The position numbers and the translations under genes were made by a program. Shown piece by piece: positions 3,040 through 17,531 of a stretch of 64,000 nucleotides of DNA. Source of the stretch: Trichormus sp. ATA11-4-KO1 (GTDB taxonomy: Bacteria > Cyanobacteriota > Cyanobacteriia > Cyanobacteriales > Nostocaceae); the NCBI GenBank assembly GCA_019358915.1, contig JAHHIM010000055.1, positions 224,001 through 288,000 of the forward strand, given 5' to 3'. Every line of letters begins with the position of its first letter. Position 1 is the stretch's first letter. The notes under the pieces were generated by a model. That model saw only the letters and a list, made by a program, of their open reading frames with translations. It made no database searches and was not told the DNA's origin.

Positions 3040-3045
3040 GTGGGG

Positions 3046-3090
3046 TAAGGACTTTAGTGCTGAGAAAAGCAGGACTAAAGTCCTGACTAC
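3046..3090. repeat. Palindromic dispersed repeat (AGGACTTTAGT...ACTAAAGTCCT), possible terminator
   Basis: Related copies at 18657-18682 (GTAGTGAGGACTTTAGTCCTCACTAC) and ~47452-47469; all lie just 3' of genes. Confidence 0.6.
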
Positions 3091-3093
3091 AAG

Positions 3094-4437
3094 CTAGAAG
3101 TTCTTCTCGACTAAACTTTTTGAATACTCCACAATTGTTTCCACTAATTCAAAATTCAATAAGCCTCCCACGTAGAAGGTTTTGCGTTGACCTTGCATGG
3201 CTTCTAGGCGATCGTAAAATCCCGCCTGCATGGCCTCTGAGGTAACGTGAGGAAAGTAAGGCCACTCATCATAGGTGTAGTAACCATCATCTACCTGCGC
3301 TCCCAAATTCTCTACTGTCTTTTGAATCCCTTGAAGAACATCTGTTTTAGTGATTTTTCCCTGGCTGTCTAGGCGAGTGTAGAAAGCAATCAGGTCATTT
3401 TCAGCAAACTGTTGAGCAATAAACCAGGGATTCCCCACCGCATTTACGGGAATGACATTAGTTACTGGGGTTGGCATTTGCAAATCAGGAATTAGATACG
3501 TAATCAAACTGTAGGGATTGAGAATGATTTGCTCAAATAGGTCTTTCTCTGCTGGCGACAAATCGAGAAAGGTGTTGAGGACATCCAGCGTCAATGGACA
3601 AGCTAAAACCAGATAGTCAAATTCTAAAACTTCTTCATGGGTAACAATCTGGTCAAGAATCTGCTCTTGCTCAGTGAACCGCACTCGCGTAATTGCCCCA
3701 CGCTTAATTTCCTTGATGTCAATATTCAAGCGCACATTTAGCCCCCAAGCAACACGCTCCCAGAAGCGTTGGAAACCATCAGTAAATCGTTTAGGCCAAC
3801 CGCAGCGCAGACCTGCACCGTAAGTAACTAAAGTCCCAAAGGTTTCTAGAGTCATGTATTTGAGGGCATAGGCGGTGGGAATTTCATTTAAGTAGCCATA
3901 GCCCATTGTGGTAATGGGAATTTCCAACAGAGTTTCTAGACATGACAAATCTTTCTGTGCTAACCACTGGGAAAAAGGTTGCGTGAGTTCGGGATGTTGA
4001 CTGATACCAGCAAATCCAGGAACAGAAATAATTGGCTCTAGCCAAAGACGCTCCCACCAAAAGCGCCCAACGGCTGCCAAAAATGTTGCTGGGTCAGTTC
4101 CCTCAGTAACAGCATTCATAATTGAGGTGTAGGCAGGTTGTCCCGGTTGAGATTTAAAAGGATTGTAGACTTGGCCTGGCCCTTCGCTGTAAAGTGAAGC
4201 GCCGACTTCTTCGGCCATTTTCAAAACTTCTTTGTAGGCAGGGGTGAGATAATTTGCACCTAAGTCAAAGGAACGGGAATTGTAGGTAATAGAACAGCAC
4301 AATCCCCCTACCCGGCCAGCTTTTTCTAACACAACTACATTGCGGTAGCCTTGCTTTTTCAAAAAGTAAGCCGTAGATAAACCGGCTGCTCCCGCCCCGA
4401 CAATACAAATTCGTGCATCTTGAGGTAGTTTAGTCAT
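3094..4437 (-). CDS. FAD-dependent oxidoreductase, PUFA-isomerase (PAI)-like
   Basis: GAGAAG Rossmann, LEK..VGG, DLGA; GYGYLNEIPTAYALKY and WPYFPHV..GFYDRLEAMQGQRKTFY resemble recalled PAI motifs. Confidence 0.8.
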   Translation of the reverse strand: MTKLPQDARICIVGAGAAGLSTAYFLKKQGYRNVVVLEKAGRVGGLCCSITYNSRSFDLGANYLTPAYKEVLKMAEEVGASLYSEGPGQVYNPFKSQPGQPAYTSIMNAVTEGTDPATFLAAVGRFWWERLWLEPIISVPGFAGISQHPELTQPFSQWLAQKDLSCLETLLEIPITTMGYGYLNEIPTAYALKYMTLETFGTLVTYGAGLRCGWPKRFTDGFQRFWERVAWGLNVRLNIDIKEIKRGAITRVRFTEQEQILDQIVTHEEVLEFDYLVLACPLTLDVLNTFLDLSPAEKDLFEQIILNPYSLITYLIPDLQMPTPVTNVIPVNAVGNPWFIAQQFAENDLIAFYTRLDSQGKITKTDVLQGIQKTVENLGAQVDDGYYTYDEWPYFPHVTSEAMQAGFYDRLEAMQGQRKTFYVGGLLNFELVETIVEYSKSLVEKNF

Positions 4438-4499
4438 ACACTGTTGATTTTTAGATAGTAATGTGGATTGGTTGGAAAGTACTGCGATCGCAACGTCTT

Positions 4500-6521
4500 C
4501 TACTGAAAATGCGGATAAACTGCTTCTGTGAATAATTGCTGAATGGCTGGCTGGTTAAGTAGCAATTCATAGTCTTGTTGGACGGGAATATCGTAACTAG
4601 CAGTGCGAGGAGCGATCGCAGATAACCAAGCAGTATGCATTGTGAAGCCAAAATTTAGTTGTGGATGGCTCAACTTGCATATAGGGCCAGCCCCTAATTG
4701 ATCAGCCTGAAAGATCCAAATTTCGTTGTTATTTCCCCCAAATACCGTACAGACGATATAGCCATCTGTGGAACTACCATTACCGTTTAATCTCGGTACA
4801 AACTGGGGTGAACTGATGAAGTGACCGGGGGGTGCATCATAAAAATCTGCCACTTCCATTTTGGTTGTATCTAACCGGAACAAAGAAGAAGGGCGATTGT
4901 GGAATGCTTCTTGTCGTTGCAGTAATTCTTTTAGTGGTACAGCCCGGTAGGGATAGTCTTGGTATAAGTTGTAAATAAACTCAGTCAGCAGTTCTGGCCA
5001 AAAACCGAGAGATTGCCAATAAATATTATCGATTCGCTTGGGAGGCAATCCAGAGGCCAGCTTTTCCTGGTAAGCATAGAACCCTATACCCCAATGACGG
5101 CGAGCATCATAAATGACTTTGGCATCTAGGACTTGTCCTGTCTCGCCGTCTATTTGATAGCGACCTAGACGACCTACATCCATTTGCCCATTAGCCAGCA
5201 TTCCTCCCAACCACAGAGGCGCAGATTTGGGAGCGTCGAATTTTGAGATGTCATACTTGCGAACCCATTCGGCGATATCTGTGGCGCAGAGATGGGCTGC
5301 GTGCATTGTGATTTGACCGTCGGGGTTTTCGTAATTTGTCAAAAAATGTACTGTTTCTAAAGGAATTAAGGATGGGCGGACTACCACAGTATCTACATCT
5401 GCCTTGAGGTCAGCCCGACGCACGATGTAAATGGGGGAATTGGGTTGCTGCGATCGCGTCAGTAATAGCCGCAGGAGGCGCTCAGTTTCTAAACTATCGG
5501 GAACTGGGTTATTGAGGATTTGTTCTGGGCCAATCTTTAGGGAAGTGTCCATCAACACCACGTAATCTTGGGTAACAGCCAACTGATGGATACTTTGTTC
5601 AATTCGCACCGGGGAACCATCCGGTAGCATTAACTGCCAGCGCTGGAGTTTACCTACACCATCCCACTGCACCAGATAAACAAAATCTGGCATGGCAGTT
5701 CCTAACCAATGCTCAATCCAGCTAATCAACGGTTGCCAGAAACTTTGAGCCAACTTCGAGAACATTTTCAAGGGAATCTGCCAGGGATTGTGCTCTAAAA
5801 GTTGAGCGATCGCCCTTAGCAGTTGCTCTAGTTCCTGGGGCAATTGTTCTAGGTCATAAATGAAACGCGCACTTTCGAGAAAATTACCTAGCGATCGCCC
5901 ATAGTTAACTAAGAACACCTCGTTGGTATAACCATCAAAGGTCGGGTGAGATGTACTCAACACCGGGGGGAAAGGATAGGAAAAAGGTAGAAAGGCTTTC
6001 CACTCGGTGTTGGCTCCTACTGGGGTCACTACCTCTAGGCTATTAGTATCAATTTCGTAGGGACGGCCTGCATCATAGGTAATCATTAATCGCTCTTGGC
6101 TGTTTATAGCCGTATTAAAGGCGAGAAAGGCAATATCTACCTCATCTCGCAAGCCCAAGGAAGGGGAAAAACGCAGTAAACCATGATCACGAAATTGATG
6201 AGAGCGATAAGCAAGATTTTTAAAAGTTGCCTGATCTGCATAGTAGCAAGGTGTACGTGCCAGTTTCGTCTTGACAGTAACCTGTCCGGCTTGCCAGTCC
6301 AAGCGGTAAATCATCCCATCACCGTTAAAAATGTGGGTTCCATTGGGATTGGGTAAGCCCCCAGAAGCGACAGTGCCTACAGGTGCAATGATGAACATAT
6401 GCCCAGACAAATCTGTCGGTACATGCCCATAGACCATATTCAGTGGTAAATTCGATAGTTCCTCACGACTGGCAGTCATTGCTGCCTCTGGAAATCGGGG
6501 TTCGGAAATTTCGCGATTCAT
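4500..6521 (-). CDS. Carotenoid oxygenase (RPE65/CCD) family dioxygenase
   Basis: FNGDGMI, DAGRPYEID and four Fe-His (SHP, SIHQL, TVHFL, TMHTAW); ATG 6521 preferred over GTG 6575. Confidence 0.88.
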   Translation of the reverse strand: MNREISEPRFPEAAMTASREELSNLPLNMVYGHVPTDLSGHMFIIAPVGTVASGGLPNPNGTHIFNGDGMIYRLDWQAGQVTVKTKLARTPCYYADQATFKNLAYRSHQFRDHGLLRFSPSLGLRDEVDIAFLAFNTAINSQERLMITYDAGRPYEIDTNSLEVVTPVGANTEWKAFLPFSYPFPPVLSTSHPTFDGYTNEVFLVNYGRSLGNFLESARFIYDLEQLPQELEQLLRAIAQLLEHNPWQIPLKMFSKLAQSFWQPLISWIEHWLGTAMPDFVYLVQWDGVGKLQRWQLMLPDGSPVRIEQSIHQLAVTQDYVVLMDTSLKIGPEQILNNPVPDSLETERLLRLLLTRSQQPNSPIYIVRRADLKADVDTVVVRPSLIPLETVHFLTNYENPDGQITMHAAHLCATDIAEWVRKYDISKFDAPKSAPLWLGGMLANGQMDVGRLGRYQIDGETGQVLDAKVIYDARRHWGIGFYAYQEKLASGLPPKRIDNIYWQSLGFWPELLTEFIYNLYQDYPYRAVPLKELLQRQEAFHNRPSSLFRLDTTKMEVADFYDAPPGHFISSPQFVPRLNGNGSSTDGYIVCTVFGGNNNEIWIFQADQLGAGPICKLSHPQLNFGFTMHTAWLSAIAPRTASYDIPVQQDYELLLNQPAIQQLFTEAVYPHFQ

Positions 6522-6738
6522 TATTGATACCCTGGCATTGCAAGCTGATTTGATGTTTTGCCTCAGGTATAACACTAGGTTTTAATTGAGAAGTTGATTT
6601 TTTGCCCTCAAATGCCCAAATATCAACTTTTTCAGGATTTTTAACTATGTAATGTATTCTTCTTGGTGTCTTAGTGCCTTAGTGGTAAAAAATAACTTTC
6701 GCACCACAACGGCACAAAGACACAAAGGTGGAAATCCC

Positions 6739-9700
6739 TTACAACTTAACTGTCTCGGTGAAAATTGCTGCTATTTCTTGCCCTGACTGACAACGGTCAA
6801 GATACATCTGCGCGACTTGATCCCACGGGTTTTGCTGCAAGCACTCTTGAAAACACTCGGCTGCGGTGGCGAATTCTTGTTGTTCGTAAAACGCTAATGC
6901 TGATGCAAATAACTCTAAGGTGGCTGTTTTACCTGCAATAATGTGGGGAAGATCGGCTGCAAATACTTCATGAACAGTTACAGCATTCGTCTTACCCTTC
7001 ACCTTCACCTGACCGACTACACGAATACCATAGCGATCGCGATTTTGTAAGCGCTCAAAAGTTTGGTCGGTAATTAGGAGTGGGGTGTTGAATGTTTTAG
7101 TTAATCCTTCGATGCGTGCTGCTAAATTGACCGCATCACTAATCACTGTGCTATCCATGCGATTCAACCCGCCAACTGTTCCTAAAATTAGCGAACCAGT
7201 ATTAATGCCAATGCCAATTTGAATTGGTAAGTAGCCCCTGGCTTGGCGTTCTTCATTGTAGGTTGCTAAGGTTTGCAACATGGCAATTCCCGCTTGTACC
7301 GCATCATCGGCATCTCCGGCAAACAATGCCATGATGGCATCACCAATATATTTGTCGATAAAGCCATTGTTTTCGATAATTATCGGCTCCATGCGACTGA
7401 GATAGGCGTTAATAAATCGGAAGTTTTCGGCGGGGGTCATGCTTTCTGAAAGGGTGGTAAAGGCGCGAATATCGGTAAATAAAACTGACATTTCCCGTTG
7501 CACCTGATCGCCTAATTGCACATCTATAATGCTTTGTTTATTGAGAAATTGCAGAAATTGGCGAGGGACAAAGCGCTCATAAGCTTTGTTAAGTGCGGCT
7601 ACATCTGTGTATAAACGGGCATTTTCAATGGAAATTGCTGCTTGTGCTGAAAGTAGGTTGAGCAACTCCAAGCGATCAGGGGTAAATGCTCCTGTTGTCA
7701 AGTTATTTTCTAAATACAAAATTCCGGCTAACTTTCCTTGGTTAATTAAGGGAGTACACAGAATTGATCGCGGTTGGTATTGGCGAATGTAGGGATCTTT
7801 GATAAATTCCCCAATTCCTACTGCTTCGTGGATGGCATCGTTGAGGACTACATTGGTTTTAGTGCGAATCACATAGTTAATAATCGCTCTCGAAAGGATT
7901 TGGTTATCTTCAATACTGAGTGATTCCAACACCTGAATAGTATTTTCACCAACAGTTCCCTGAGCTTCAATCAGAAATTTACCTTTGGTTGACAACAGCA
8001 AAAATCCCCGTTGCGCCCCGGCATTTTCCATTAAAATTCGCATTAAGTTAGAGAGAAGTTTATCTAGCTGAATTTCTTCGGAAAGGGTCTGAGAAGCTTT
8101 AATGACTGTCACCAAATCTAATGATTCTGAATGACTACTACTCGTGATGCTGGTCTGGTTAGAACTAGTGGTTGATAAAGTTGATTTAACAGCTTTGTCT
8201 GGATTGCGCGTTAAAATTTCGGGATACTTGGCTTCTAAATCTTTAACTTTGGCGATCGCGCCCCACTGTAAATAAAGATAGCGGGCTTCTTGCAGATAAA
8301 CTTGGGCAATCTTGAATTTGTTTTCAGCCAAGTAAAATTTGGCAGTTAATTCATTGGCTAGAGCCGCTTCATTAAGATATTGGTTTTTTTGAGCTAAGGC
8401 AATGGCTTGATCGTAACAGGCGATCGCTTGACTAGATTTTCCCTGTACCCGATGCCATTCTGCTTCTACCAGCGCTAATTTATGGGTATAGTTGACAGGA
8501 GAAAATTTCGCCCATACTTGCAATTTTTTCTGGTTAGCTGCTACTCGCTGGAGTAGTTTTTGCCGTTCTGCTGCACTGACAACTGAGGCTAAAGCTAGTC
8601 GTCCTAAAGAGTCATAAAAGTAGAACCATCCCACAATATATAAAGCCACAACTGCATCTAAATAAGGAATTGCTAAATCAGCATTCTTGACAGCTGTAGC
8701 ATAATCTTCAAACCAATAATTGAGTGTGAGGTAATGAGTATAAACATAAAAAATAGCTGTGCGATAATTACTCTCGATATGCTGGGGTAACATAACGGTG
8801 GCATCATAAAATTCTCCCACCAATTGACAAGGATTAGCATTTTTTCCTTGTAAATTTGCAACTGCTTGGCGATAAAGTTGAATGAGCACAAAAATCGGTT
8901 TTTTCTTAAACTGCTGAATTGCCTCTCCGTAAATAGCTACACATTCATCCAATTCAGCCAGATTTTGACCAGAAAAATAGGAATGCATAGAGCAGACATT
9001 GGCAGCAAATGCAGCATACTCAGTATCGCCTGTATCCCGCCCAACTTGAAATGCTGCTTGCAGTGAAGGAATCGTATTTTGCAGTGGTTCTTGCCAGTGG
9101 CGGACAAAGGAATTAACTACAAATAAAGTTCTCGCTTGCAGGTGTTTGGCATTAAAACGGTCTAGCAGTTTCAAAGCTAATTCACCAAATTTATATCCCC
9201 CTTGCAAATCCCCAACAACGCCACAGAGAATCAAGCCATAAGTAGCGTAGGCAAAGGCTGATTCCGCCGCATTGCCGTATTTAGCGGATAGTTCTACCTG
9301 TTTAAAAACGGTCAAAGGAAAAACATTCGGGGCTGCTAGGTAGGTGGCCGAGGCGATACTAGCCAGGATGCGAATTGCCGCTAATTTCGTGGGATTGCTG
9401 AGTTCTGGCAATTCAACTAAGGTGTGTACCTGCTTACCTACCAAAGCCAGTTTAGTTTTTAACAATCCCAGCATAATTTGTGGTTGACCGGGGTTGTTAG
9501 CTAAGGGAATGCCCAGCAGTTGCATTACTTGCAGACCGAGTTGAGAAGCTGCCAACAGTTGATCGCGGGCGATCGCCGCTTGGATTTTGATGGCATAAAC
9601 CTGCACCTGATCGATTGTGCTGCGGGTCTTTTGCAGTACTTCTTCTGTGAGTGCATCCATGCGCTCAAAGTCTCCACCCAGATAAGCAGCTTCGGCGGCG

Positions 9701-12102
9701 GCGGTGTGCAATGCCAAAGCTAACTCATACTGCTGTTGCCAACAGTTAGCTGTGAGGCAGTTAATCCCCATTGTCAGATAATCTAAGGCTGGCTGATAGG
9801 CTGCTGAGGCTTTGGCTTTGTTACCTGCTGTTAAGTTCAACTGAGCTAGTTCCTGGCGTTGTTGAGGATTTGTAATTAAGTCAATGCCGAAATTCAGTTG
9901 GTTAACAATGTCAAAAATCTTTTCTTCTTGCTTTTGAGGGGTAATGCCTTGTAATAACAGTTGCCCAATCTGCAAGTGTACTGCCTGTTTTTGGTCAGTA
10001 GAAATTAGTGAATAGGCTGCTTGCTGGACGCGATCGTGCAGGAATTTGTAGACTACATCCAAATTTTTTAAGTTCGCAGCTACTTCTTGATCAGCAACTT
10101 GCAAGAGTTGGTAGTCATTGCCTTGGGGTAAAATTAGCCCTGTTTGCACGGCTTCCCAGAGTTGGGCGGCGACATCTGCAAGTGATTTTGAGCTAGCGAT
10201 CGCTAAAGTATGTAAATCAAATAAATTACCAATACAAGCGGCTAATTTTAAGGCTTCCTGGGTGGCTACTGGCAGCTTTTGAATTTTCAGTGCCATCAAC
10301 TCGACTACATTATCAGTAATCTGGGCTGCTTGGATTTTTGCCAGTTGCCACTGCCATTGCCGTTGAGCGAAATTAAACTGTAATAATTCTTCTGTATATA
10401 GCGACTTGAGAAATTCATTCATGAAGAAGGGATTGCCATTGGTCTTCTGCTGAAGCAGTTCAGCTAAAGGAGTAAGCTGTGCTAAATCTTCATTGTTAAG
10501 GGTATCGCTGAGGAGTTGTTGAATTTGGGGCAATGCTAAGGGCTTTAAGGTGATTTCGTGAATAGCCGCCCCTATTTGTTCTAAGGATGCGATCGTTGTC
10601 CTTAGTGGATGGGTTTTATCTACTTCGTGATCACGATAAGCACCAATCAACAACAGATATTGACTGTCTACCTGACTCATTAACAACTCAATTAGCTGGA
10701 GTGATGCACTATCCGCCCATTGCAGGTCATCCAAAAACATCACTAAAGGATGTTCCTTTTGGGTAAAGACCTGAATAAAGTTTTGCAAGACTAAATTAAA
10801 CCGAGTTTGCGCTTCTTTGGGCGATAGTTCTACAACAGGTGGCTGAGTCCCAATAATCAATTCCACCTCTGCAATCACGTCGATGATTACCTGACCATTC
10901 ACACCAAGAGCATTTAATAATTTTTCACGCCAAGTGGTAATTTCTGCTTCACTTGTAGTTAACAGTTGGCGAATTAAAGCTTGAAAGGCTTGGATTAAAG
11001 AACTGTAGGGAATGTTACGTTGAAACTGGTCAAATTTCCCAGAAATAAAATATCCCCGTTGTTGGGTAATTGGTTTATAAATTTCTTGTACCAAGGCTGA
11101 TTTGCCAATGCCAGAATAACCAGCAATCAGCATTACTTCGCTCTGTCCTTGACTGGTTCGCTCAAAGGCTGCGAGTAAGCTTGCTACTTCCGCTTCTCGT
11201 CCGTACAGTTTTTGCGGAATTTGAAATCTACCGGAGTGATCCTGCTGTCCTAGTGCAAATAATGGAATTTGCCCTGTAGTATTGAACATCTCCAGGCATT
11301 TCTGTAAATCTGTCTGCAACCCAAAAGCACTTTGATAACGCGCCTCGGCTGTCTTTTCTAGCAACTTCATCACAATTTGCGAAAGCGCTGGCGGAATTTG
11401 GGGATTAATTTGATCAGGCGGAATCGCTTGTTTGGCAATGTGGCTATGAACCAATTCCACAGGATCATCACTCCTAAAAGGTAACTGCTGGGTCAACAGT
11501 TCGTAGAAAGTGACTCCCAAAGAATAAAAGTCGGTGCGATAATCAAGCGATCGATTCATCCGTCCTGTTTGTTCAGGAGAAATATAAGCGAGAGTTCCTT
11601 CCAAAACATTCAGATTTCGTAAAGTGGGATTTTCCCGCGATAGTAAAGTCGCAATGCCAAAGTCAATTATTTTCGTTTGTTGAGTCGTGGGATTAAGGAG
11701 AATATTGGCAGGATTAATGTCTTTATGAATAATCTGTTGCTGATGAATTTCTGCTAAAGCTGCTGCTACTTGTATAGCCAGTTGCAAAAAATTCTGTAGC
11801 GGTAGAGGCGATTGATTGAGTAATTCACGCAGGGATTGCCCACCAAAATCCTCTAAAATTAACACTAAAGTGTTTTGATATTTTTTCAAGTCGTAGGCTT
11901 GGATAATTCCAGGCGCTTGAAAGCGGCGTGTGAGAGCATATTCAAGTTTAAACCGAGCGATCGCTTCTGGGGGTGGGTATTCTTGCCGCAGGACTTTCAG
12001 TACTACTGGTTGTTGATTTAACTCTCGATATCCTCGATAAACCTGAGAATTGGGGCTGGTGTGCAGTTCTGTCAGGACTTCATACCCTTCCAGTGTAATC
12101 AT
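6739..12102 (-). CDS. Ser/Thr kinase-AAA(STAND)-GAF-class III adenylate cyclase, 1787 aa
   Basis: HKDINPANIL/DFG/SPE kinase; GYSGIGKS and LDDLQWAD ATPase; ILCTPL..ILYLEN GAF; FTDIRAFT, KYIGDAIM, VNLAARIE, VKGK cyclase. Confidence 0.92.
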   Translation of the reverse strand: MITLEGYEVLTELHTSPNSQVYRGYRELNQQPVVLKVLRQEYPPPEAIARFKLEYALTRRFQAPGIIQAYDLKKYQNTLVLILEDFGGQSLRELLNQSPLPLQNFLQLAIQVAAALAEIHQQQIIHKDINPANILLNPTTQQTKIIDFGIATLLSRENPTLRNLNVLEGTLAYISPEQTGRMNRSLDYRTDFYSLGVTFYELLTQQLPFRSDDPVELVHSHIAKQAIPPDQINPQIPPALSQIVMKLLEKTAEARYQSAFGLQTDLQKCLEMFNTTGQIPLFALGQQDHSGRFQIPQKLYGREAEVASLLAAFERTSQGQSEVMLIAGYSGIGKSALVQEIYKPITQQRGYFISGKFDQFQRNIPYSSLIQAFQALIRQLLTTSEAEITTWREKLLNALGVNGQVIIDVIAEVELIIGTQPPVVELSPKEAQTRFNLVLQNFIQVFTQKEHPLVMFLDDLQWADSASLQLIELLMSQVDSQYLLLIGAYRDHEVDKTHPLRTTIASLEQIGAAIHEITLKPLALPQIQQLLSDTLNNEDLAQLTPLAELLQQKTNGNPFFMNEFLKSLYTEELLQFNFAQRQWQWQLAKIQAAQITDNVVELMALKIQKLPVATQEALKLAACIGNLFDLHTLAIASSKSLADVAAQLWEAVQTGLILPQGNDYQLLQVADQEVAANLKNLDVVYKFLHDRVQQAAYSLISTDQKQAVHLQIGQLLLQGITPQKQEEKIFDIVNQLNFGIDLITNPQQRQELAQLNLTAGNKAKASAAYQPALDYLTMGINCLTANCWQQQYELALALHTAAAEAAYLGGDFERMDALTEEVLQKTRSTIDQVQVYAIKIQAAIARDQLLAASQLGLQVMQLLGIPLANNPGQPQIMLGLLKTKLALVGKQVHTLVELPELSNPTKLAAIRILASIASATYLAAPNVFPLTVFKQVELSAKYGNAAESAFAYATYGLILCGVVGDLQGGYKFGELALKLLDRFNAKHLQARTLFVVNSFVRHWQEPLQNTIPSLQAAFQVGRDTGDTEYAAFAANVCSMHSYFSGQNLAELDECVAIYGEAIQQFKKKPIFVLIQLYRQAVANLQGKNANPCQLVGEFYDATVMLPQHIESNYRTAIFYVYTHYLTLNYWFEDYATAVKNADLAIPYLDAVVALYIVGWFYFYDSLGRLALASVVSAAERQKLLQRVAANQKKLQVWAKFSPVNYTHKLALVEAEWHRVQGKSSQAIACYDQAIALAQKNQYLNEAALANELTAKFYLAENKFKIAQVYLQEARYLYLQWGAIAKVKDLEAKYPEILTRNPDKAVKSTLSTTSSNQTSITSSSHSESLDLVTVIKASQTLSEEIQLDKLLSNLMRILMENAGAQRGFLLLSTKGKFLIEAQGTVGENTIQVLESLSIEDNQILSRAIINYVIRTKTNVVLNDAIHEAVGIGEFIKDPYIRQYQPRSILCTPLINQGKLAGILYLENNLTTGAFTPDRLELLNLLSAQAAISIENARLYTDVAALNKAYERFVPRQFLQFLNKQSIIDVQLGDQVQREMSVLFTDIRAFTTLSESMTPAENFRFINAYLSRMEPIIIENNGFIDKYIGDAIMALFAGDADDAVQAGIAMLQTLATYNEERQARGYLPIQIGIGINTGSLILGTVGGLNRMDSTVISDAVNLAARIEGLTKTFNTPLLITDQTFERLQNRDRYGIRVVGQVKVKGKTNAVTVHEVFAADLPHIIAGKTATLELFASALAFYEQQEFATAAECFQECLQQNPWDQVAQMYLDRCQSGQEIAAIFTETVKL

Positions 12103-12547
12103 AGATTATTCAAGCGTTTGCTGTATAGTTAGGGTCTATTCAGTATAAATTGCTTACCTTGCAAGTGAACAGAGATTAGCTAAATTTACTTACGCAAATT
12201 TACTCAACGCTTCTACATAATGCTTGATTTTGTGACTAGGACAGTAAGCTAAAAAAATATTTAGTTTGCATATTTAAATTAGATTAAACTCTTGTGGGCT
12301 AGGCATTTTAACTTATTCACAAAACCAGCAAAATCATCCCGCAAATATACAACACCGTTTTTCTCTATCACTAGAGTGATGGCTGCCTTTACAGACACAA
12401 ACATAATGTATAAAACATTAATAATTTCCACTCTTAATCTCTGCGCCACACCAGTAACTACAACTGTGAGAACCAAAGCAACGCATTGACTTCGTTCGCT
12501 ATCACCTACAGCCACATTGCTGCCTGAGAAGATAACTCGGAGTGTAT

Positions 12548-12986: not shown

Positions 12987-13586
12987 TTATTGCCAAAGAT
13001 AAATCAGGATAAACAAAACAATCCAGATGACATCGACGAAATGCCAAAATAACGAGGTCGCATTCACGCCAAAGTGACCTGATTCGTAGTTACCAGGGAA
13101 GAAAGAACGGACAAAAATAATCAACTGCAACAAAATACCTGTGAGGACGTGTAAACCGTGGAAACCAGTTAATAAATAGAACATTCCACCGTATACCCCG
13201 GAGGTAAAGCCAAAGGTCAGGTTACTCCATTCAATACCTTGTCCTACTAAAAAGTAACTACCCATTGCCATTGTTGCCGCGAGATACACACGAAATCCCA
13301 TCAAGTTGTGGCGTTGTAGGGCGCGTTCTGCTAGGTAAATGACGAAGCTACTGGAAACAAGAATGACTGTGTTGATTGCAGGTTCTTTGATTTCTAGTCC
13401 CGAAACTCCTGCTGGTAGCCAATTAGGTGTTGTTGTTTTGTAGATGATATATCCGGCGAAAAAACTCAGGAAGATGACACTTTCGGAGAGGAGGAAGACG
13501 ATGAAGCCGAACATTTTGTTGCCTTCTTCGTCGTGTTCGTGTTCTCTCGGTAATTGCAATTCAGATGAGTTGATGGAACTGTCCAT
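12987..13586 (-). CDS. coxC: Heme-copper oxidase subunit III (ARTO/cox3-type)
   Basis: FLLSE, TGFHGLHV, FWHFVDVIW. Confidence 0.92.
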   Translation of the reverse strand: MDSSINSSELQLPREHEHDEEGNKMFGFIVFLLSESVIFLSFFAGYIIYKTTTPNWLPAGVSGLEIKEPAINTVILVSSSFVIYLAERALQRHNLMGFRVYLAATMAMGSYFLVGQGIEWSNLTFGFTSGVYGGMFYLLTGFHGLHVLTGILLQLIIFVRSFFPGNYESGHFGVNATSLFWHFVDVIWIVLFILIYLWQ

Positions 13587-13635
13587 TGTGAGAAATTCTC
13601 CTTGTTTAAACGCAGAGGAACGCTGAGGGGGGTAA

Positions 13636-15294
13636 CTAGTCTGCGTTTTCCCGTGGGTTATTGGCTGTTAAGGGTTCTGATTTGCCGTAGCCGTAGGGTT
13701 CAGAGATGATGATGGGGATTTGTTCAAAGTTTTCCACTGGGGGTGGTGAAGAAATCATCCACTCTAGTCCAATGGCGCGCCAGGGATTATCAGGTGCTTT
13801 CTCTCCTTGCAGCCAAGAACTTACCATGTTGAAGATGAAGGGTAAGGTGGACATGCCCAACATGAAGCCGCCCAGGCTAGCAATGATGTTCCAAAATTCG
13901 TACTCTGGGGCGTAGGAGGAAACTCGGCGTAACATTCCTTGTAGTCCCAAGGGGTGCATGGGGAGAAAGTTAAGGTTGGTGCCAATAAATGTTAACCAAA
14001 AGTGTAATTTGCCCCAGCCTTCGTAGTACATCCGTCCGGTCATTTTGGGGAACCAGTGGTAGATGGCAGAATATAAGCCCATCGTGACTGTGCCAAAAAG
14101 AACGTAATGGAAGTGTCCTACTACAAAGTAGGTGTTGTTAACATGAACATCTACAGGTACTGAGGAAAGCATAATGCCTGTGATACCTGCGAAGACAAAC
14201 ATCACCAAAGCACCAAGGGAAAACAGCATTGCTGTGTCCAGTCGCAGTTTACCTCCCCAAATGGTGGCTACCCAAGCAAATACTTTAATGCCTGTGGGTA
14301 CAGAGACAAACATAGTTGTCAGCATGAAAATTAACCGCATCCAGCCGGGTGTACCACTGACGTACATGTGGTGTACCCAGACAATGCCACTGACTACGGC
14401 AATTAACATTGAAGAAATAGCAACTACTTTGTAGCCAAATAACGGTTTGCGCGCATAGACAGGGAATATTTCCGAGAAAATGCCGAAGATAGGCAAAATA
14501 ATCACGTAAACGGCAGGGTGGGAGTAAAACCAGAAGTAATGTTGGAAGAGAACTGGATTACCACCGTGGCTGGGATTGAAAAAGGCCGTCCCTGCTGTCA
14601 GGTCAAGTAACAGCATGACAGCACCTGCTGTGAGTGCAGGTAATCCAAATAATTGGATAATTTGGGCGCTAAATACTGCCCAAACAAATAAAGGCATCCG
14701 AAAGAAGCCCATACCTGGGGTGCGCATTTTCACAATGGTGGTAACAAAGTTAACTGCCCCCATAATTGAGGATACGCCGGATATGGCTACTGCCAGCAAC
14801 CAGATCACTTGACCGTTGATTAAGTTACCTGTAGGGTTTTGCAGACTGACTGGTGGGTAAGACCACCAACCTGCTTGGGCTGGGCCACCAGGGACTAAGA
14901 AACTGCCCATTAGCAGAATTCCCACAACTGGCACCATCCAAAAGGCGACGGCGTTGAGGCGGGGAAATGCCATGTCTCGCGCCCCAATCATTAGAGGTAC
15001 GAGATAGTTAGCAAAACCAACGAGTGAGGGAAATGTCCACAAAAACAACATGACGGTGCCGTGCATGGTGAACATACCGTTATAGACGGTGCGGTCAACT
15101 AAGTCAGATTCGGGTGTAATGAGTTCTCCCCGAATTACCATTGCAAAGATGCCACCGACCAAAAAGAAGATAAATGAAGTCACAAGGTACTGAATACCAA
15201 TGACCTTGTGGTCGGTGCTAAAGCTGAAGTATTGTTTCCAGCCACCTGGTTTCTCATTATGGTGACTGATGTCTACAAGTACGATATTTTTCAC
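13636..15294 (-). CDS. coxA: Heme-copper oxidase subunit I (ARTO/cox3-type)
   Basis: TMHG, YSHPAVY, WVHHM, GHFH ligands. Confidence 0.95.
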   Translation of the reverse strand: MKNIVLVDISHHNEKPGGWKQYFSFSTDHKVIGIQYLVTSFIFFLVGGIFAMVIRGELITPESDLVDRTVYNGMFTMHGTVMLFLWTFPSLVGFANYLVPLMIGARDMAFPRLNAVAFWMVPVVGILLMGSFLVPGGPAQAGWWSYPPVSLQNPTGNLINGQVIWLLAVAISGVSSIMGAVNFVTTIVKMRTPGMGFFRMPLFVWAVFSAQIIQLFGLPALTAGAVMLLLDLTAGTAFFNPSHGGNPVLFQHYFWFYSHPAVYVIILPIFGIFSEIFPVYARKPLFGYKVVAISSMLIAVVSGIVWVHHMYVSGTPGWMRLIFMLTTMFVSVPTGIKVFAWVATIWGGKLRLDTAMLFSLGALVMFVFAGITGIMLSSVPVDVHVNNTYFVVGHFHYVLFGTVTMGLYSAIYHWFPKMTGRMYYEGWGKLHFWLTFIGTNLNFLPMHPLGLQGMLRRVSSYAPEYEFWNIIASLGGFMLGMSTLPFIFNMVSSWLQGEKAPDNPWRAIGLEWMISSPPPVENFEQIPIIISEPYGYGKSEPLTANNPRENAD

Positions 15295-15305
15295 GCGGTT
15301 TCCTT

Positions 15306-16238
15306 TTAACCAGGATAATTGACCAAAGGAGATGCCGCAGGTGCAACTGTCGGCCAGCCAGTTTTGACTGATTGACTAGATGCTTGGGCATATTCAGAGG
15401 CGGCCTGATTGTTAGCTGGGCTTGGTTTCTGGGTGGCAGCTTGGGCTAGCCATTGCTGGTAGTCTTCTGGAGATTCGACGACTACATTAGCTTGCATAGT
15501 GGCAAAATATGTACCACTATATTGAGAATCGGTGAGGCGATATTGACCGACGCGGGTGGGCGTAAATTCAAAGTCAATGGTGTGGTTGGGGATAATATCC
15601 TGCTTGAGGCGAAATGCTGGAATATAGAAGCCATGGAGCACATCTTCTGATTGCAGCGCTAAATGTACCCGGCGATCGCTTGGTAAATGCAGTTCGGTAC
15701 TGGTAACATTTTTTTCAGGGTAATGGAAGACCCATGCCCATTGTTTCGCTACTACTTCAATGTTTTCTGATGGAGAGACAACAGATGTCCCCTTGTTTTC
15801 CATCGGTGCTGCATAAGCCGACTCCATACCTACGGGATTATGCAAATGTACAAGTTCCATCGGCCCTTGAATCCCCATTTGCTCGTAGACTTGGTAGCTA
15901 TAGCCGGCAATCCACAGCACTAACATAATAGGGATGGCTGTCCAGACAACTTCCAAGGTGACATTACCTTCAATGTGAGGGCCGTCGGTCAAGTCGCCTT
16001 CTTTTGCCCGATGAAAAATGATTGAATACATGAGAGTGCTAGTCACACCCAAAAAGATGAACGCTCCCAGTGTTACTAAGAAACTAATCAAATCATCAAT
16101 CAGTTGGGATTCTGCGGCTGCTTGGGGAGGAAGCCAGGTATAAGCTTGTTTACCAATCCAGAGACTGATCACAGTCACTGCGATCGCTCCCGCAAACACG
16201 GTTAAAATGTTGAAAATCTTCTGGACTTTCATACTCAT
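15306..16238 (-). CDS. coxB: Oxidase subunit II lacking CuA cysteines (ARTO)
   Basis: KQWAW, DVLHGF; CuA region reads DSQYSGTYFATM instead of CxExCGxxHxxM; the ORF extension to 16295 is repeat-derived. Confidence 0.9.
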   Translation of the reverse strand: MSMKVQKIFNILTVFAGAIAVTVISLWIGKQAYTWLPPQAAAESQLIDDLISFLVTLGAFIFLGVTSTLMYSIIFHRAKEGDLTDGPHIEGNVTLEVVWTAIPIMLVLWIAGYSYQVYEQMGIQGPMELVHLHNPVGMESAYAAPMENKGTSVVSPSENIEVVAKQWAWVFHYPEKNVTSTELHLPSDRRVHLALQSEDVLHGFYIPAFRLKQDIIPNHTIDFEFTPTRVGQYRLTDSQYSGTYFATMQANVVVESPEDYQQWLAQAATQKPSPANNQAASEYAQASSQSVKTGWPTVAPAASPLVNYPG

Positions 16239-16292
16239 TGGGAATGGGGAATAGGGGATAGGGAATAGGGAACAGAGGAATTCTTCGCTAAA

Positions 16293-16425
16293 CACTCAGC
16301 ACTCAGCACTCCCCTTCGACTTCGCTCAGCACTCAGCACTCAGCACTCAGCACTCAAAAAGGCACTCAGCACTCAGCACTCAAAAAGGCACTCAGCACTC
16401 AGCACTCAAAAAGGCACTCAGCACT
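16293..16425. repeat. STRR (CTCAGCA)n with 26-bp higher-order unit
   Basis: AAAAAGG spacer at 16356, 16382, 16408. Confidence 0.9.
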
Positions 16426-16428
16426 TTG

Positions 16429-17034
16429 CTACTTGAGAACTGTGTTCAGGTCTGCACCCATTCTCAGTAGGGTATCGGCGGTGTTGTGTACACCAAACTC
16501 GGCGGCCATTTGCGCCCCTAATGTGCCGTGGACGTACATGATTAACATCACTGCTACGCCGATGGCTAGATAACTCCACTGCACTTGTTGGTCTGCGTCT
16601 TGACTCCAAACGAAGCGCTGCCATCCTCTCCAAACGGTCATACCCAGAATCAGTGCTAGTAAGAATACACCACCGATGCCATGCCAAATCATCGTTTCCA
16701 TTGCCTGCATTCCCCAGGCACTTTTAACATCAGCTGGTGGTGTAGCTAGCAACATTTCATAAAAGCCTGCGGCTACGGTGAAAAAAGTAATCACCGTGGA
16801 ACCTAGCATGTTGTACCAGCCCACATCAAATAAGTTGGCACGTTCAACGGAAATTGCCAAAAATTTGAACATCCATTTTTGGAAGGGGAAAAGTGTACCA
16901 ACGATATCAAAGGTAATCCCAATGATGAACAGACCCAAAGTCAGGTGGACTAAGTTGGGATGAATGGGAATGGAATAAGGTAAGCCGTTAGCGCCCAGTT
17001 GTACGTTCAATTGGTCAATTAATTCCGAGTTCAT
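16429..17034 (-). CDS. DUF2231 membrane protein of the ARTO operon
   Basis: IHPNLVHL, four TM segments, His-rich; position upstream of coxB. Confidence 0.85.
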   Translation of the reverse strand: MNSELIDQLNVQLGANGLPYSIPIHPNLVHLTLGLFIIGITFDIVGTLFPFQKWMFKFLAISVERANLFDVGWYNMLGSTVITFFTVAAGFYEMLLATPPADVKSAWGMQAMETMIWHGIGGVFLLALILGMTVWRGWQRFVWSQDADQQVQWSYLAIGVAVMLIMYVHGTLGAQMAAEFGVHNTADTLLRMGADLNTVLK

Positions 17035-17531
17035 GGCAAGATACCTTCCTTGACTGCTTCAACAACTGGTACTGTGTGCAGTCCATATACCCAAACAAGT
17101 TCATCACCGAGATATACTTGCATACCCACAATCACAGTTAAAAGTAGCCCCGCTACCATATAATGAATCGGCAATTTGTAAGGGTTGCGGGTACGAATTA
17201 CATAGCGCCAAGCTGTAATTGAGGCGATAATTCCCGACAGCGACCAGCCCACTAGTGTATGCACATTCAGCACTGATTTAGCTAAGTCATAAGGTTGAGC
17301 TAAGCCAGCTTCAAACTGACCAAAAATAATCGCTACGAAGATAGCGATCGTCGCTACACACATATTCCACCAACTCACTTCAAAAAGATGAGTTCTACCA
17401 GTAAAATAACCTAGTACATCACAGAAGAATGCAAACAAAACCATCGCGATTACGAAGTGGACGATGATGGGATGCATCGTATCTGGATACGGCAAATTGT
17501 GGTCGTTCAAAGATGTAAGATACTCAAGCAT
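17031..17531 (-). CDS. DUF2231 membrane protein of the ARTO operon
   Basis: MHPIIVHF, LGDELVWVYG; 4-nt overlap with next gene. Confidence 0.85.
   Translation of the reverse strand: MLEYLTSLNDHNLPYPDTMHPIIVHFVIAMVLFAFFCDVLGYFTGRTHLFEVSWWNMCVATIAIFVAIIFGQFEAGLAQPYDLAKSVLNVHTLVGWSLSGIIASITAWRYVIRTRNPYKLPIHYMVAGLLLTVIVGMQVYLGDELVWVYGLHTVPVVEAVKEGILP

Follow-up and report, generated by a model that had tools for sequence, protein, structure and literature searches.

HstK (cbSTKIII) dual kinases (PMC2176072), which correspond to the CP1 kinases linked to COG3899 (PMC12599244), carry an N-terminal Ser/Thr kinase, a predicted ATPase and a GAF domain, and a kinase–GAF–cyclase form has been listed for Tery_2857 (PMC2176072). 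The available parts of these two accounts name neither a ligand nor a link to carotenoid-cleavage oxygenases (CCOs) or to proteins resembling PAI, the polyunsaturated fatty acid (PUFA) isomerase of Cutibacterium acnes. Among STAND NTPases, a SWACOS clade has been named (PMC7159879, PMC13581612). Here we analysed a 64,000-nucleotide (nt) stretch of Trichormus sp. ATA11-4-KO1 (assembly GCA_019358915.1, contig JAHHIM010000055.1, positions 224,001–288,000; hereafter, the window), in which a sensor of the HstK/CP1 kind is encoded in a row with a long-form CCO homologue and a PAI-like flavoprotein (3094–12102). The trio is genuine and conserved, and it constitutes a signalling cassette that has apparently not been described before, composed of known families in a design with one partial precedent. 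A literature search that left most subscription journals and supplements outside found no paper pairing a CCO with a PAI-like protein or with a STAND protein.

The partial precedent is a cyanobacterial sesquiterpene cluster of a terpene synthase, a cytochrome P450 together with a ‘hybrid two-component protein’ (PMC4558948, which cites Agger et al. 2008), in which an FAD oxidoreductase takes the place of the P450 in four genomes (PMC4558948). As the trio probably does, this cluster encodes enzymes for lipophilic small molecules beside a kinase–STAND–GAF sensor. Its enzymes are different, however, and it has convergent genes and a histidine-kinase output, whereas the trio is co-oriented with a cyclase output. 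The available part of that account treats the cluster as biosynthetic and names no relation between ligand and sensor (PMC4558948).

In the ORF (open reading frame) list of the window, the trio consists of three co-oriented ORFs, all on the minus strand, and the gaps of 217 nt (sensor to CCO) and 62 nt (CCO to flavoprotein) agree with the preliminary description of this DNA, which had put them at about 220 and 62 bp. The first gene (6739–12102, minus strand, 1,787 amino acids (aa)) encodes a Ser/Thr kinase, a STAND NTPase, a helical/TPR-like region, a GAF domain and a class III cyclase. The corresponding Pfam domains (Pkinase, 18–257; AAA_16, 298–486; GAF, 1346–1492; Guanylate_cyc, 1535–1709) bear out the architecture proposed earlier. 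Motifs are intact in the kinase (VVLKVL at residue 33, HKDINPANILL at 126 and DFG at 147), in the STAND domain (GYSGIGKS at 328, LVMFLDDLQW at 453 and GNPFF at 556) and in the cyclase (VLFTDIR at 1540, IDKYIGDAIM at 1582 and DSTVISDAVNLAARIEG at 1650). The cyclase aligns best with CyaB (PDB 3r5g, E = 8.3e-26), and D1544, K1584, D1588, T1653 and the Asn/Arg residues all match CyaB in this alignment. In class IIIb enzymes we take the two Asp to hold metal, the Lys and Thr to determine the choice of ATP, and the Asn and Arg to act on the transition state; judged by these residues, the domain has the catalytic set of a class IIIb adenylyl cyclase.

With kinase, AAA_16 STAND NTPase and GAF in one chain, the sensor has the composition of HstK and CP1 proteins and, if the clade is defined as we assume, of SWACOS-type proteins. 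It nests among HstK-type paralogues in the STAND tree and is 44–54% identical to paralogues over residues 1–1300. It is not an HstK in the strict sense, since a class III cyclase replaces the C-terminal histidine kinase expected there. Membership in an anti-phage system known to PADLOC was also ruled out, its models giving only generic matches to the kinase and cyclase domains and none to the CCO. HstK/CP1 kinase–STAND proteins are abundant in filamentous cyanobacteria, with from 2 to about 30 matches in each of the genomes examined.

The second gene (4500–6521, minus strand, 673 aa) starts at an ATG at 6521 that is common to its relatives; the listed GTG at 6575 would give 691 aa. Its product matches PF03055 (RPE65) with E = 5.9e-36 and 125 bits against a cut-off of 27, and RPE65 is found in all 30 of its ESM Atlas matches. 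Like known CCOs (ACO 2biw, NOV/LSD 5j53, CCD1 9luz and RPE65), it combines PF03055 with four His and the GDG and FVPR motifs. Three of the four (H192, H312 and H629) line up with His in CCOs of known structure, and H392 is assigned by motif; these four are invariant across 111 close homologues and kept in 134–135 of 136 diverse ones. The CCD-family dioxygenase named in the preliminary description is thus confirmed at superfamily level by PF03055 and the four His. The best PDB profile match reaches E = 2.5e-12, which is distant from every solved CCO, and scores of 21–52 bits against NCBIfam cut-offs of 650–800 (52 against 650 for LSD/NOV2) exclude the named subfamilies LSD/NOV2 and 8'-apo-carotenoid 13,14-dioxygenase. 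Long CCOs differ from known ones in length (about 670–800 versus 470–550 aa), in their link to STAND genes and probably in the second shell, which is canonically three Glu and here, from sequence, is likely D150, D448 and S571. Relatives are many, 660–800 aa long and cyanobacterial where named, the subfamily comprising 404 clusters at 50% identity (E up to 1e-30). Doubled long CCOs, with two units in one 1,460–1,480-aa frame, occur at L068:843-5231 and L134:7640-12088, and tandem pairs at L063, L093, L103, L116, L123 and L291 (L numbers denote loci).

The third gene (3094–4437, minus strand, 447 aa) encodes an FAD protein with the fold of PAI. PAI (2b9w) is its full-length match (E = 8.8e-39), other PDB matches covering the N-terminal FAD motif only, and comes out on top in sequence comparison, in Foldseek and in VIA, with a lead of 11 Z units over CpaO. 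The protein has an amine-oxidase-family FAD fold with a PAI-type substrate domain and belongs to a separate subfamily, marked by GANY, WPKRF and conserved R130, R217, Q343, Y353 and R355. CpaO, a cyclising oxidase, is itself among the structural neighbours of PAI (PMC13003489), and PAI makes t10,c12-CLA (conjugated linoleic acid) from linoleic acid (PMC13365329).

Synteny, a check that the preliminary description had set, was examined in a genome scan that yielded 371 long-CCO stretches, the best 80 of which were kept and gave 76 loci; the set leans to close kin, with many Nostoc and Microcoleus records. The trio passes this check, being conserved at 59–97% identity in 13 of the 76 loci and across distant lineages: seven of these records are from Nostoc/Nostocales, two from Leptolyngbyaceae, one each from Stenomitos and Halomicronema, and two from unclassified cyanobacteria. 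Its gaps can be as short as 56 and 18 nt. In trees, the CCOs of the trio group as a single clade (support 1.0), and its sensors do likewise together with two unlinked paralogues, with the sensor of L156 as their sister (0.97, long branch). A kinase–STAND gene lies within 2.5 kb of the long CCO in 59 of the 76 loci (17 upstream, 42 downstream), of which L117 and L144 showed the kinase only and L140 the STAND part only, and a PAI-like gene follows the CCO directly in 19. The stable core is the long CCO with a STAND sensor.

Any STAND class occurs within 2.5 kb in 63/76 loci and in 17/23 phylum-sample loci, versus 40/2164 long ORFs of this genome as background, where the profiles for four classes were built from these same loci and kin are not independent. 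Co-occurrence of CCO and STAND genes is far above chance. The phylum sample of 400 evenly drawn genomes contains 22 with a long CCO, 10 of them from one genus, and 2 with a PAI-like gene, with two long-CCO candidates scored per genome and four PAI-like candidates scored. The 23 loci come from 19 of these 22 genomes; in the remaining three (G028, G040 and G275) the sensor is adjacent, in G040 across a contig break. The three canonical CCOs and two lipoxygenase-like genes of the Trichormus genome lie on contigs with no STAND match.

STAND partners near long CCOs are of several types: kinase–STAND–GAF, cyclase–STAND (L291), AAA_35, NB-ARC–WD40 (L306, L308 and L309) and nSTAND1 (L084). Outputs of the CCO-linked sensors comprise cyclase, GGDEF, SpoIIE, histidine kinase and AAA_35, and the sensors are spread over no fewer than five positions in the STAND tree, which rules out a single monophyletic clade of them. 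A separate long-CCO clade follows NB-ARC–WD40 STAND genes or WD40 fragments at L306, L308, L309, L071 and L307, and at L307 a canonical CCO lies directly 3′ of the long one. Six loci (L091, L093, L094, L101, L104 and L120) have kinase–STAND–GAF sensors with a second STAND-like AAA_35 domain as C-terminal output, and at several of these loci the CCO or the sensor also has an AAA_35 gene of its own as neighbour. A TPS secretion gene is next to the long CCO in 3/6 phylum-sample loci with no STAND gene within 2.5 kb; at L301, L302 and L310 the CCO is divergent from a gene with a TPS-secretion domain. In a Polyangia record (L140), a long CCO that falls next to the trio clade with weak support is convergent with a STAND gene.

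Pairing of PAI-like genes with CCOs extends to other bacteria. A metagenome scan confirmed 98 PAI-like stretches, 80 of which were kept as 77 loci; after removal of L149, which repeats the L122 trio, and of L151, which is the window itself, grouping the remaining 75 at 90% identity gave 67 groups, and 38 of these have 3 kb of flank or more. Neighbours were labelled by hand from profiles and Pfam, with 104 of 147 remaining candidate ORFs scanned and rough ORF calling in GC-rich metagenome contigs. Lipid or CCO neighbours occur in 14 of the 38 groups (CCO in 6, cyclopropane fatty-acid synthase in 5, patatin in 3, and lipoxygenase, haem peroxidase and an LCAT-like protein in 1 each), signalling neighbours also in 14 (STAND in 9, cyclase in 9, kinase in 6) and both kinds in 6. 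The partner CCOs belong to three clades, namely long (as in the window), CCD1-like (L156) and NdCCD/BCO-like (L167), whereas the PAI-like proteins of the trio, L156, L166, L167 and L170 lie in one subclade (0.91). The pairing has thus persisted through replacement of its CCO, which suggests that the two functions are coupled. L156 (CCO, patatin, PAI-like, kinase–STAND–GAF–cyclase) and L166 (PAI-like, CCO, PAI-like, cyclase–STAND, patatin) rebuild the three parts found in the window and add a patatin.

On one contig (L167), the PAI-like protein and the CCO are fused in a single open frame. In L166 and L170 the two genes overlap by ATGA; at the L167 junction, which is longer, the CCO ATG is gone, so the fusion is not explained by a one-base error. 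L165/L166 and L170 were rejected as fusions, being separate overlapping genes. The exact L167 sequence was not found in the protein collection, and among longer PAI-containing proteins (1,050–2,995 aa) the search returned no PAI–CCO fusion. It did return four giant proteins (P0241–P0244; Rhizophagus, two Asteraceae and a metagenome) in which a PAI-like domain of more remote kinship is joined to AMP-binding and acyl-carrier domains, in some cases with catalase. Elsewhere, PAI-like genes accompany a cyclopropane fatty-acid synthase (L182, L200–L203, L206 and L207), adjoined by a STAND gene in L200–L202, and a protein of about 340 aa with no Pfam match recurs with PAI-like and tandem-cyclase–STAND genes (L158, L162, L185, L186 and L187).

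Beyond the genes, domains, intact catalytic motifs, PAI fold and repeated linkage that we observed, we propose a mechanism in which the flavoprotein would move double bonds of a PUFA into conjugation, the four-histidine dioxygenase would use O2 to cut the conjugated product, yielding an aldehyde plus an oxo-acid, and an enzyme product would in turn be bound by the STAND sensor, which would respond with phosphorylation and synthesis of cyclic AMP (cAMP). The three genes very probably form a functional cassette. Gene coupling and the one fusion suggest that the enzymes act in sequence, and we consider it likely that they share a lipophilic alkene as substrate; the PAI fold and the neighbouring genes favour, by a smaller measure, a fatty acid over an isoprenoid. 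The whole chain from conjugation through cleavage to STAND sensing is a tentative proposal to which we give somewhat less than even weight. From fatty acids set free by a lipase, lipoxygenase and hydroperoxide lyase make an oxo-acid and an aldehyde, and the proposed cassette would yield the same kind of product using other enzyme families and no hydroperoxide step. In L218, a lipoxygenase, an enzyme of this oxylipin route, replaces the CCO beside PAI-like and kinase–STAND–GAF–histidine kinase genes.

That the sensor reads the product is suggested by the varied outputs behind a conserved enzyme neighbour and by enzyme cassettes beside paralogous sensors. In the Trichormus genome there are six kinase–STAND–GAF genes and, besides the PAI-like gene of the trio, a second one (23% identity). 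This second gene is flanked on one side by a terpene synthase and on the other by a convergent kinase–STAND–GAF–histidine kinase sensor (L061:5545-14017; G000:C4), occupying the P450 slot of a sesquiterpene-type cluster; the G001 counterpart (L311) has neither the terpene synthase nor the PAI-like gene. Two of the seven other loci of window-sensor paralogues (L312 and L316) show a terpene synthase with a P450, arranged in the same way; at three of the seven, one in this genome, Pyr_redox_3-type flavoproteins are encoded, L314 being judged by its N-terminal sequence only. In L318 (2611-12366; G000:C30), L314 and L317, a paralogue converges on genes for a Pyr_redox_3 flavoprotein and a conserved protein of unknown kind, joined in L318 by a flavin monooxygenase, an arrangement that is a candidate for a further ligand-making cassette. 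Paralogous sensors thus repeatedly have enzyme cassettes for neighbours, but proteins with the PAI fold can have a place in isoprenoid metabolism as well.

The preliminary description had proposed an isomerase-then-dioxygenase pathway with the sensor controlling or sensing it, a reading that is upheld in part; the recurring linkage, the fatty-acid-enzyme neighbours and the cyclase residues speak for it, and the presence of the flavoprotein in just 19 of 76 loci against. Further observations weigh on the same negative side. Most long CCOs work without a PAI-like partner, given that 57 of 76 loci have no such neighbour and that PAI-like genes occur in 2, and long CCOs in 22, of the 400 sampled genomes. 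Parts of the trio are lost in close kin, with CCO and PAI-like genes but no sensor in L074, L075 and L085, and sensor and CCO but no PAI-like gene in L077 and L079. We know of no CCO that was shown to cleave a fatty acid, and because its second shell likely departs from the three canonical Glu, catalysis by the long CCO is not assured. The scatter of CCO-linked sensors in the STAND tree argues against one conserved ligand pocket, and because the second PAI-like gene follows a terpene synthase in the P450 slot, the PAI fold is not tied to fatty acids. Neither kind of neighbour is present in 16 of the 38 PAI-like groups, which include the near-duplicates L209/L210 and some with histidine-kinase or TIR neighbours, and the neighbour counts have no background rate for these contigs.

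The flavoprotein itself is set apart from PAI. The PUFA-isomerase-like label of the preliminary description holds for the fold and fails for orthology: identity to PAI is 25–27% (27% to 2b9w), the clade is separate, and a true PAI-type protein (L220; 2b9w, E = 2e-139) falls outside it. In PAI, we take Arg88 to be the carboxylate clamp and Arg88 and Phe193 to stand at the substrate entrance. In a poorly aligned region of the window protein, Arg88 appears not to be kept and faces N92/Y91 or no Arg, and a Tyr lies near the place of Phe193. Unlike PAI, the protein has its own conserved Arg/Gln/Tyr set and is encoded in signalling cassettes.

A rival to the fatty-acid reading is an isoprenoid pathway, in which the dioxygenase would cut a carotenoid or apocarotenoid, the flavoprotein would isomerise or oxidise double bonds and the sensor would read the apocarotenoid. 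All PDB relatives of the CCO have carotenoids or stilbenes as named substrates, L307 places a canonical CCO directly 3′ of a long one, and the second PAI-like gene sits in a terpene synthase–kinase cluster like that of PMC4558948. We nevertheless regard this pathway as unlikely, as the enzymes that recur beside PAI-like genes of this subfamily are patatin, cyclopropane synthase, lipoxygenase and a haem peroxidase, the long CCO is far from every carotenoid-cleaving structure (best E = 2.5e-12), and the genome already has three canonical CCOs. Alternatively, the sensor may answer another cue, such as damage, infection or nutrient state, with the enzymes as effectors or destroyers of a signal. 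Long CCOs also stand beside NB-ARC–WD40, nSTAND1, AAA_35, cyclase–STAND and TPS secretion genes, and the sensor parts of these neighbours are unrelated, making one shared ligand pocket unlikely; the HstK kinases Pkn44 and Pkn30 act on heterocyst glycolipid synthesis, according to the title of Shi 2007 as cited in PMC4365693. Against this reversal, the sensors differ freely in output behind a constant enzyme neighbour, as expected if the enzyme serves the input, the sensor has its own kinase and cyclase outputs, and PADLOC models match neither enzyme over its length; we give it a minor though appreciable chance.

It is improbable that the long CCO is a non-cleaving partner of STAND proteins that binds iron and O2 or lipid, with the flavoprotein as an optional add-on: the roughly 200 extra residues, the likely Asp/Asp/Ser positions in the second shell and the common tandem and doubled copies would fit, whereas the retention of all four His in nearly every diverse member does not, nor does the finding that in other bacteria this position next to a PAI-like gene is taken by CCOs of ordinary length. 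Chance neighbourhood on a mobile block would agree with the patchy spread (22/400 genomes, 10 of one genus), the differing flanks and the close kinship of many loci. It is largely refuted already, and very improbable, by linkage of 74–83% versus 1.8%, by the renewed assembly of the linkage from other clades of CCO and other classes of STAND, and by the fusion and the start/stop overlap.

A broader form of the fatty-acid proposal has two parts, whose joint truth we consider doubtful. In one, a patatin would free PUFAs for conjugation by the PAI-fold flavoenzyme and cleavage by the CCO-family dioxygenase, and the resulting aldehyde or oxo-acid would be the ligand of an NLR-like STAND receptor, giving a lipoxygenase-independent bacterial oxylipin pathway. 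In the other, HstK/CP1 paralogues would each be encoded beside their ligand-makers (terpene synthase and P450, flavin monooxygenases, or CCO and isomerase), a LuxI/LuxR-like design on STAND NTPases in multicellular cyanobacteria. Because the cassette holds candidate ligand-making enzymes and a built-in cAMP readout, it makes the ligand question of HstK/CP1 sensors directly testable. If the proposal is true, two orphan enzyme groups, the long CCO subfamily and the PAI-fold subfamily, would gain a function, and a fatty-acid-cleaving CCO would be new chemistry for the superfamily and a second route to oxylipin-type aldehydes.

The cluster of palindromes and miniature inverted-repeat transposable elements (MITEs) noted earlier at the 3′ border is present, but its repeats do not mark the module, as they and a repeat inside the sensor–CCO gap each match 14–51 places across the genome, and they were ruled out as part of it. 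A palindromic, hairpin-forming dispersed repeat directly 3′ of the flavoprotein stop codon (3040–3092, unstranded as are the others; 31 genome places) could serve as terminator, with a terminator-like match at 3085–3070 (minus strand) in a promoter and terminator scan whose sites were overall no more numerous than in shuffles. A short repeat of the same cluster lies at 2890–2916 (14 places), and a hairpin-forming one fills 6648–6738 (51 places) of the sensor–CCO gap, which is just 56–59 nt in loci L127 and L122 versus 217 nt in the window. A further hairpin-forming repeat (20 places) lies at 12103–12540.

The surrounding genes are unrelated to the trio, as had been described: Pfam identifies a CbiQ-type transporter and an Ala_racemase_N protein downstream and DUF3140 upstream. 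Further upstream (12987–17531) lie cytochrome-oxidase-like genes with two membrane-protein genes upstream of them. The oxidase genes are kept in a genome of the same genus, and the flanks differ at other trio loci.

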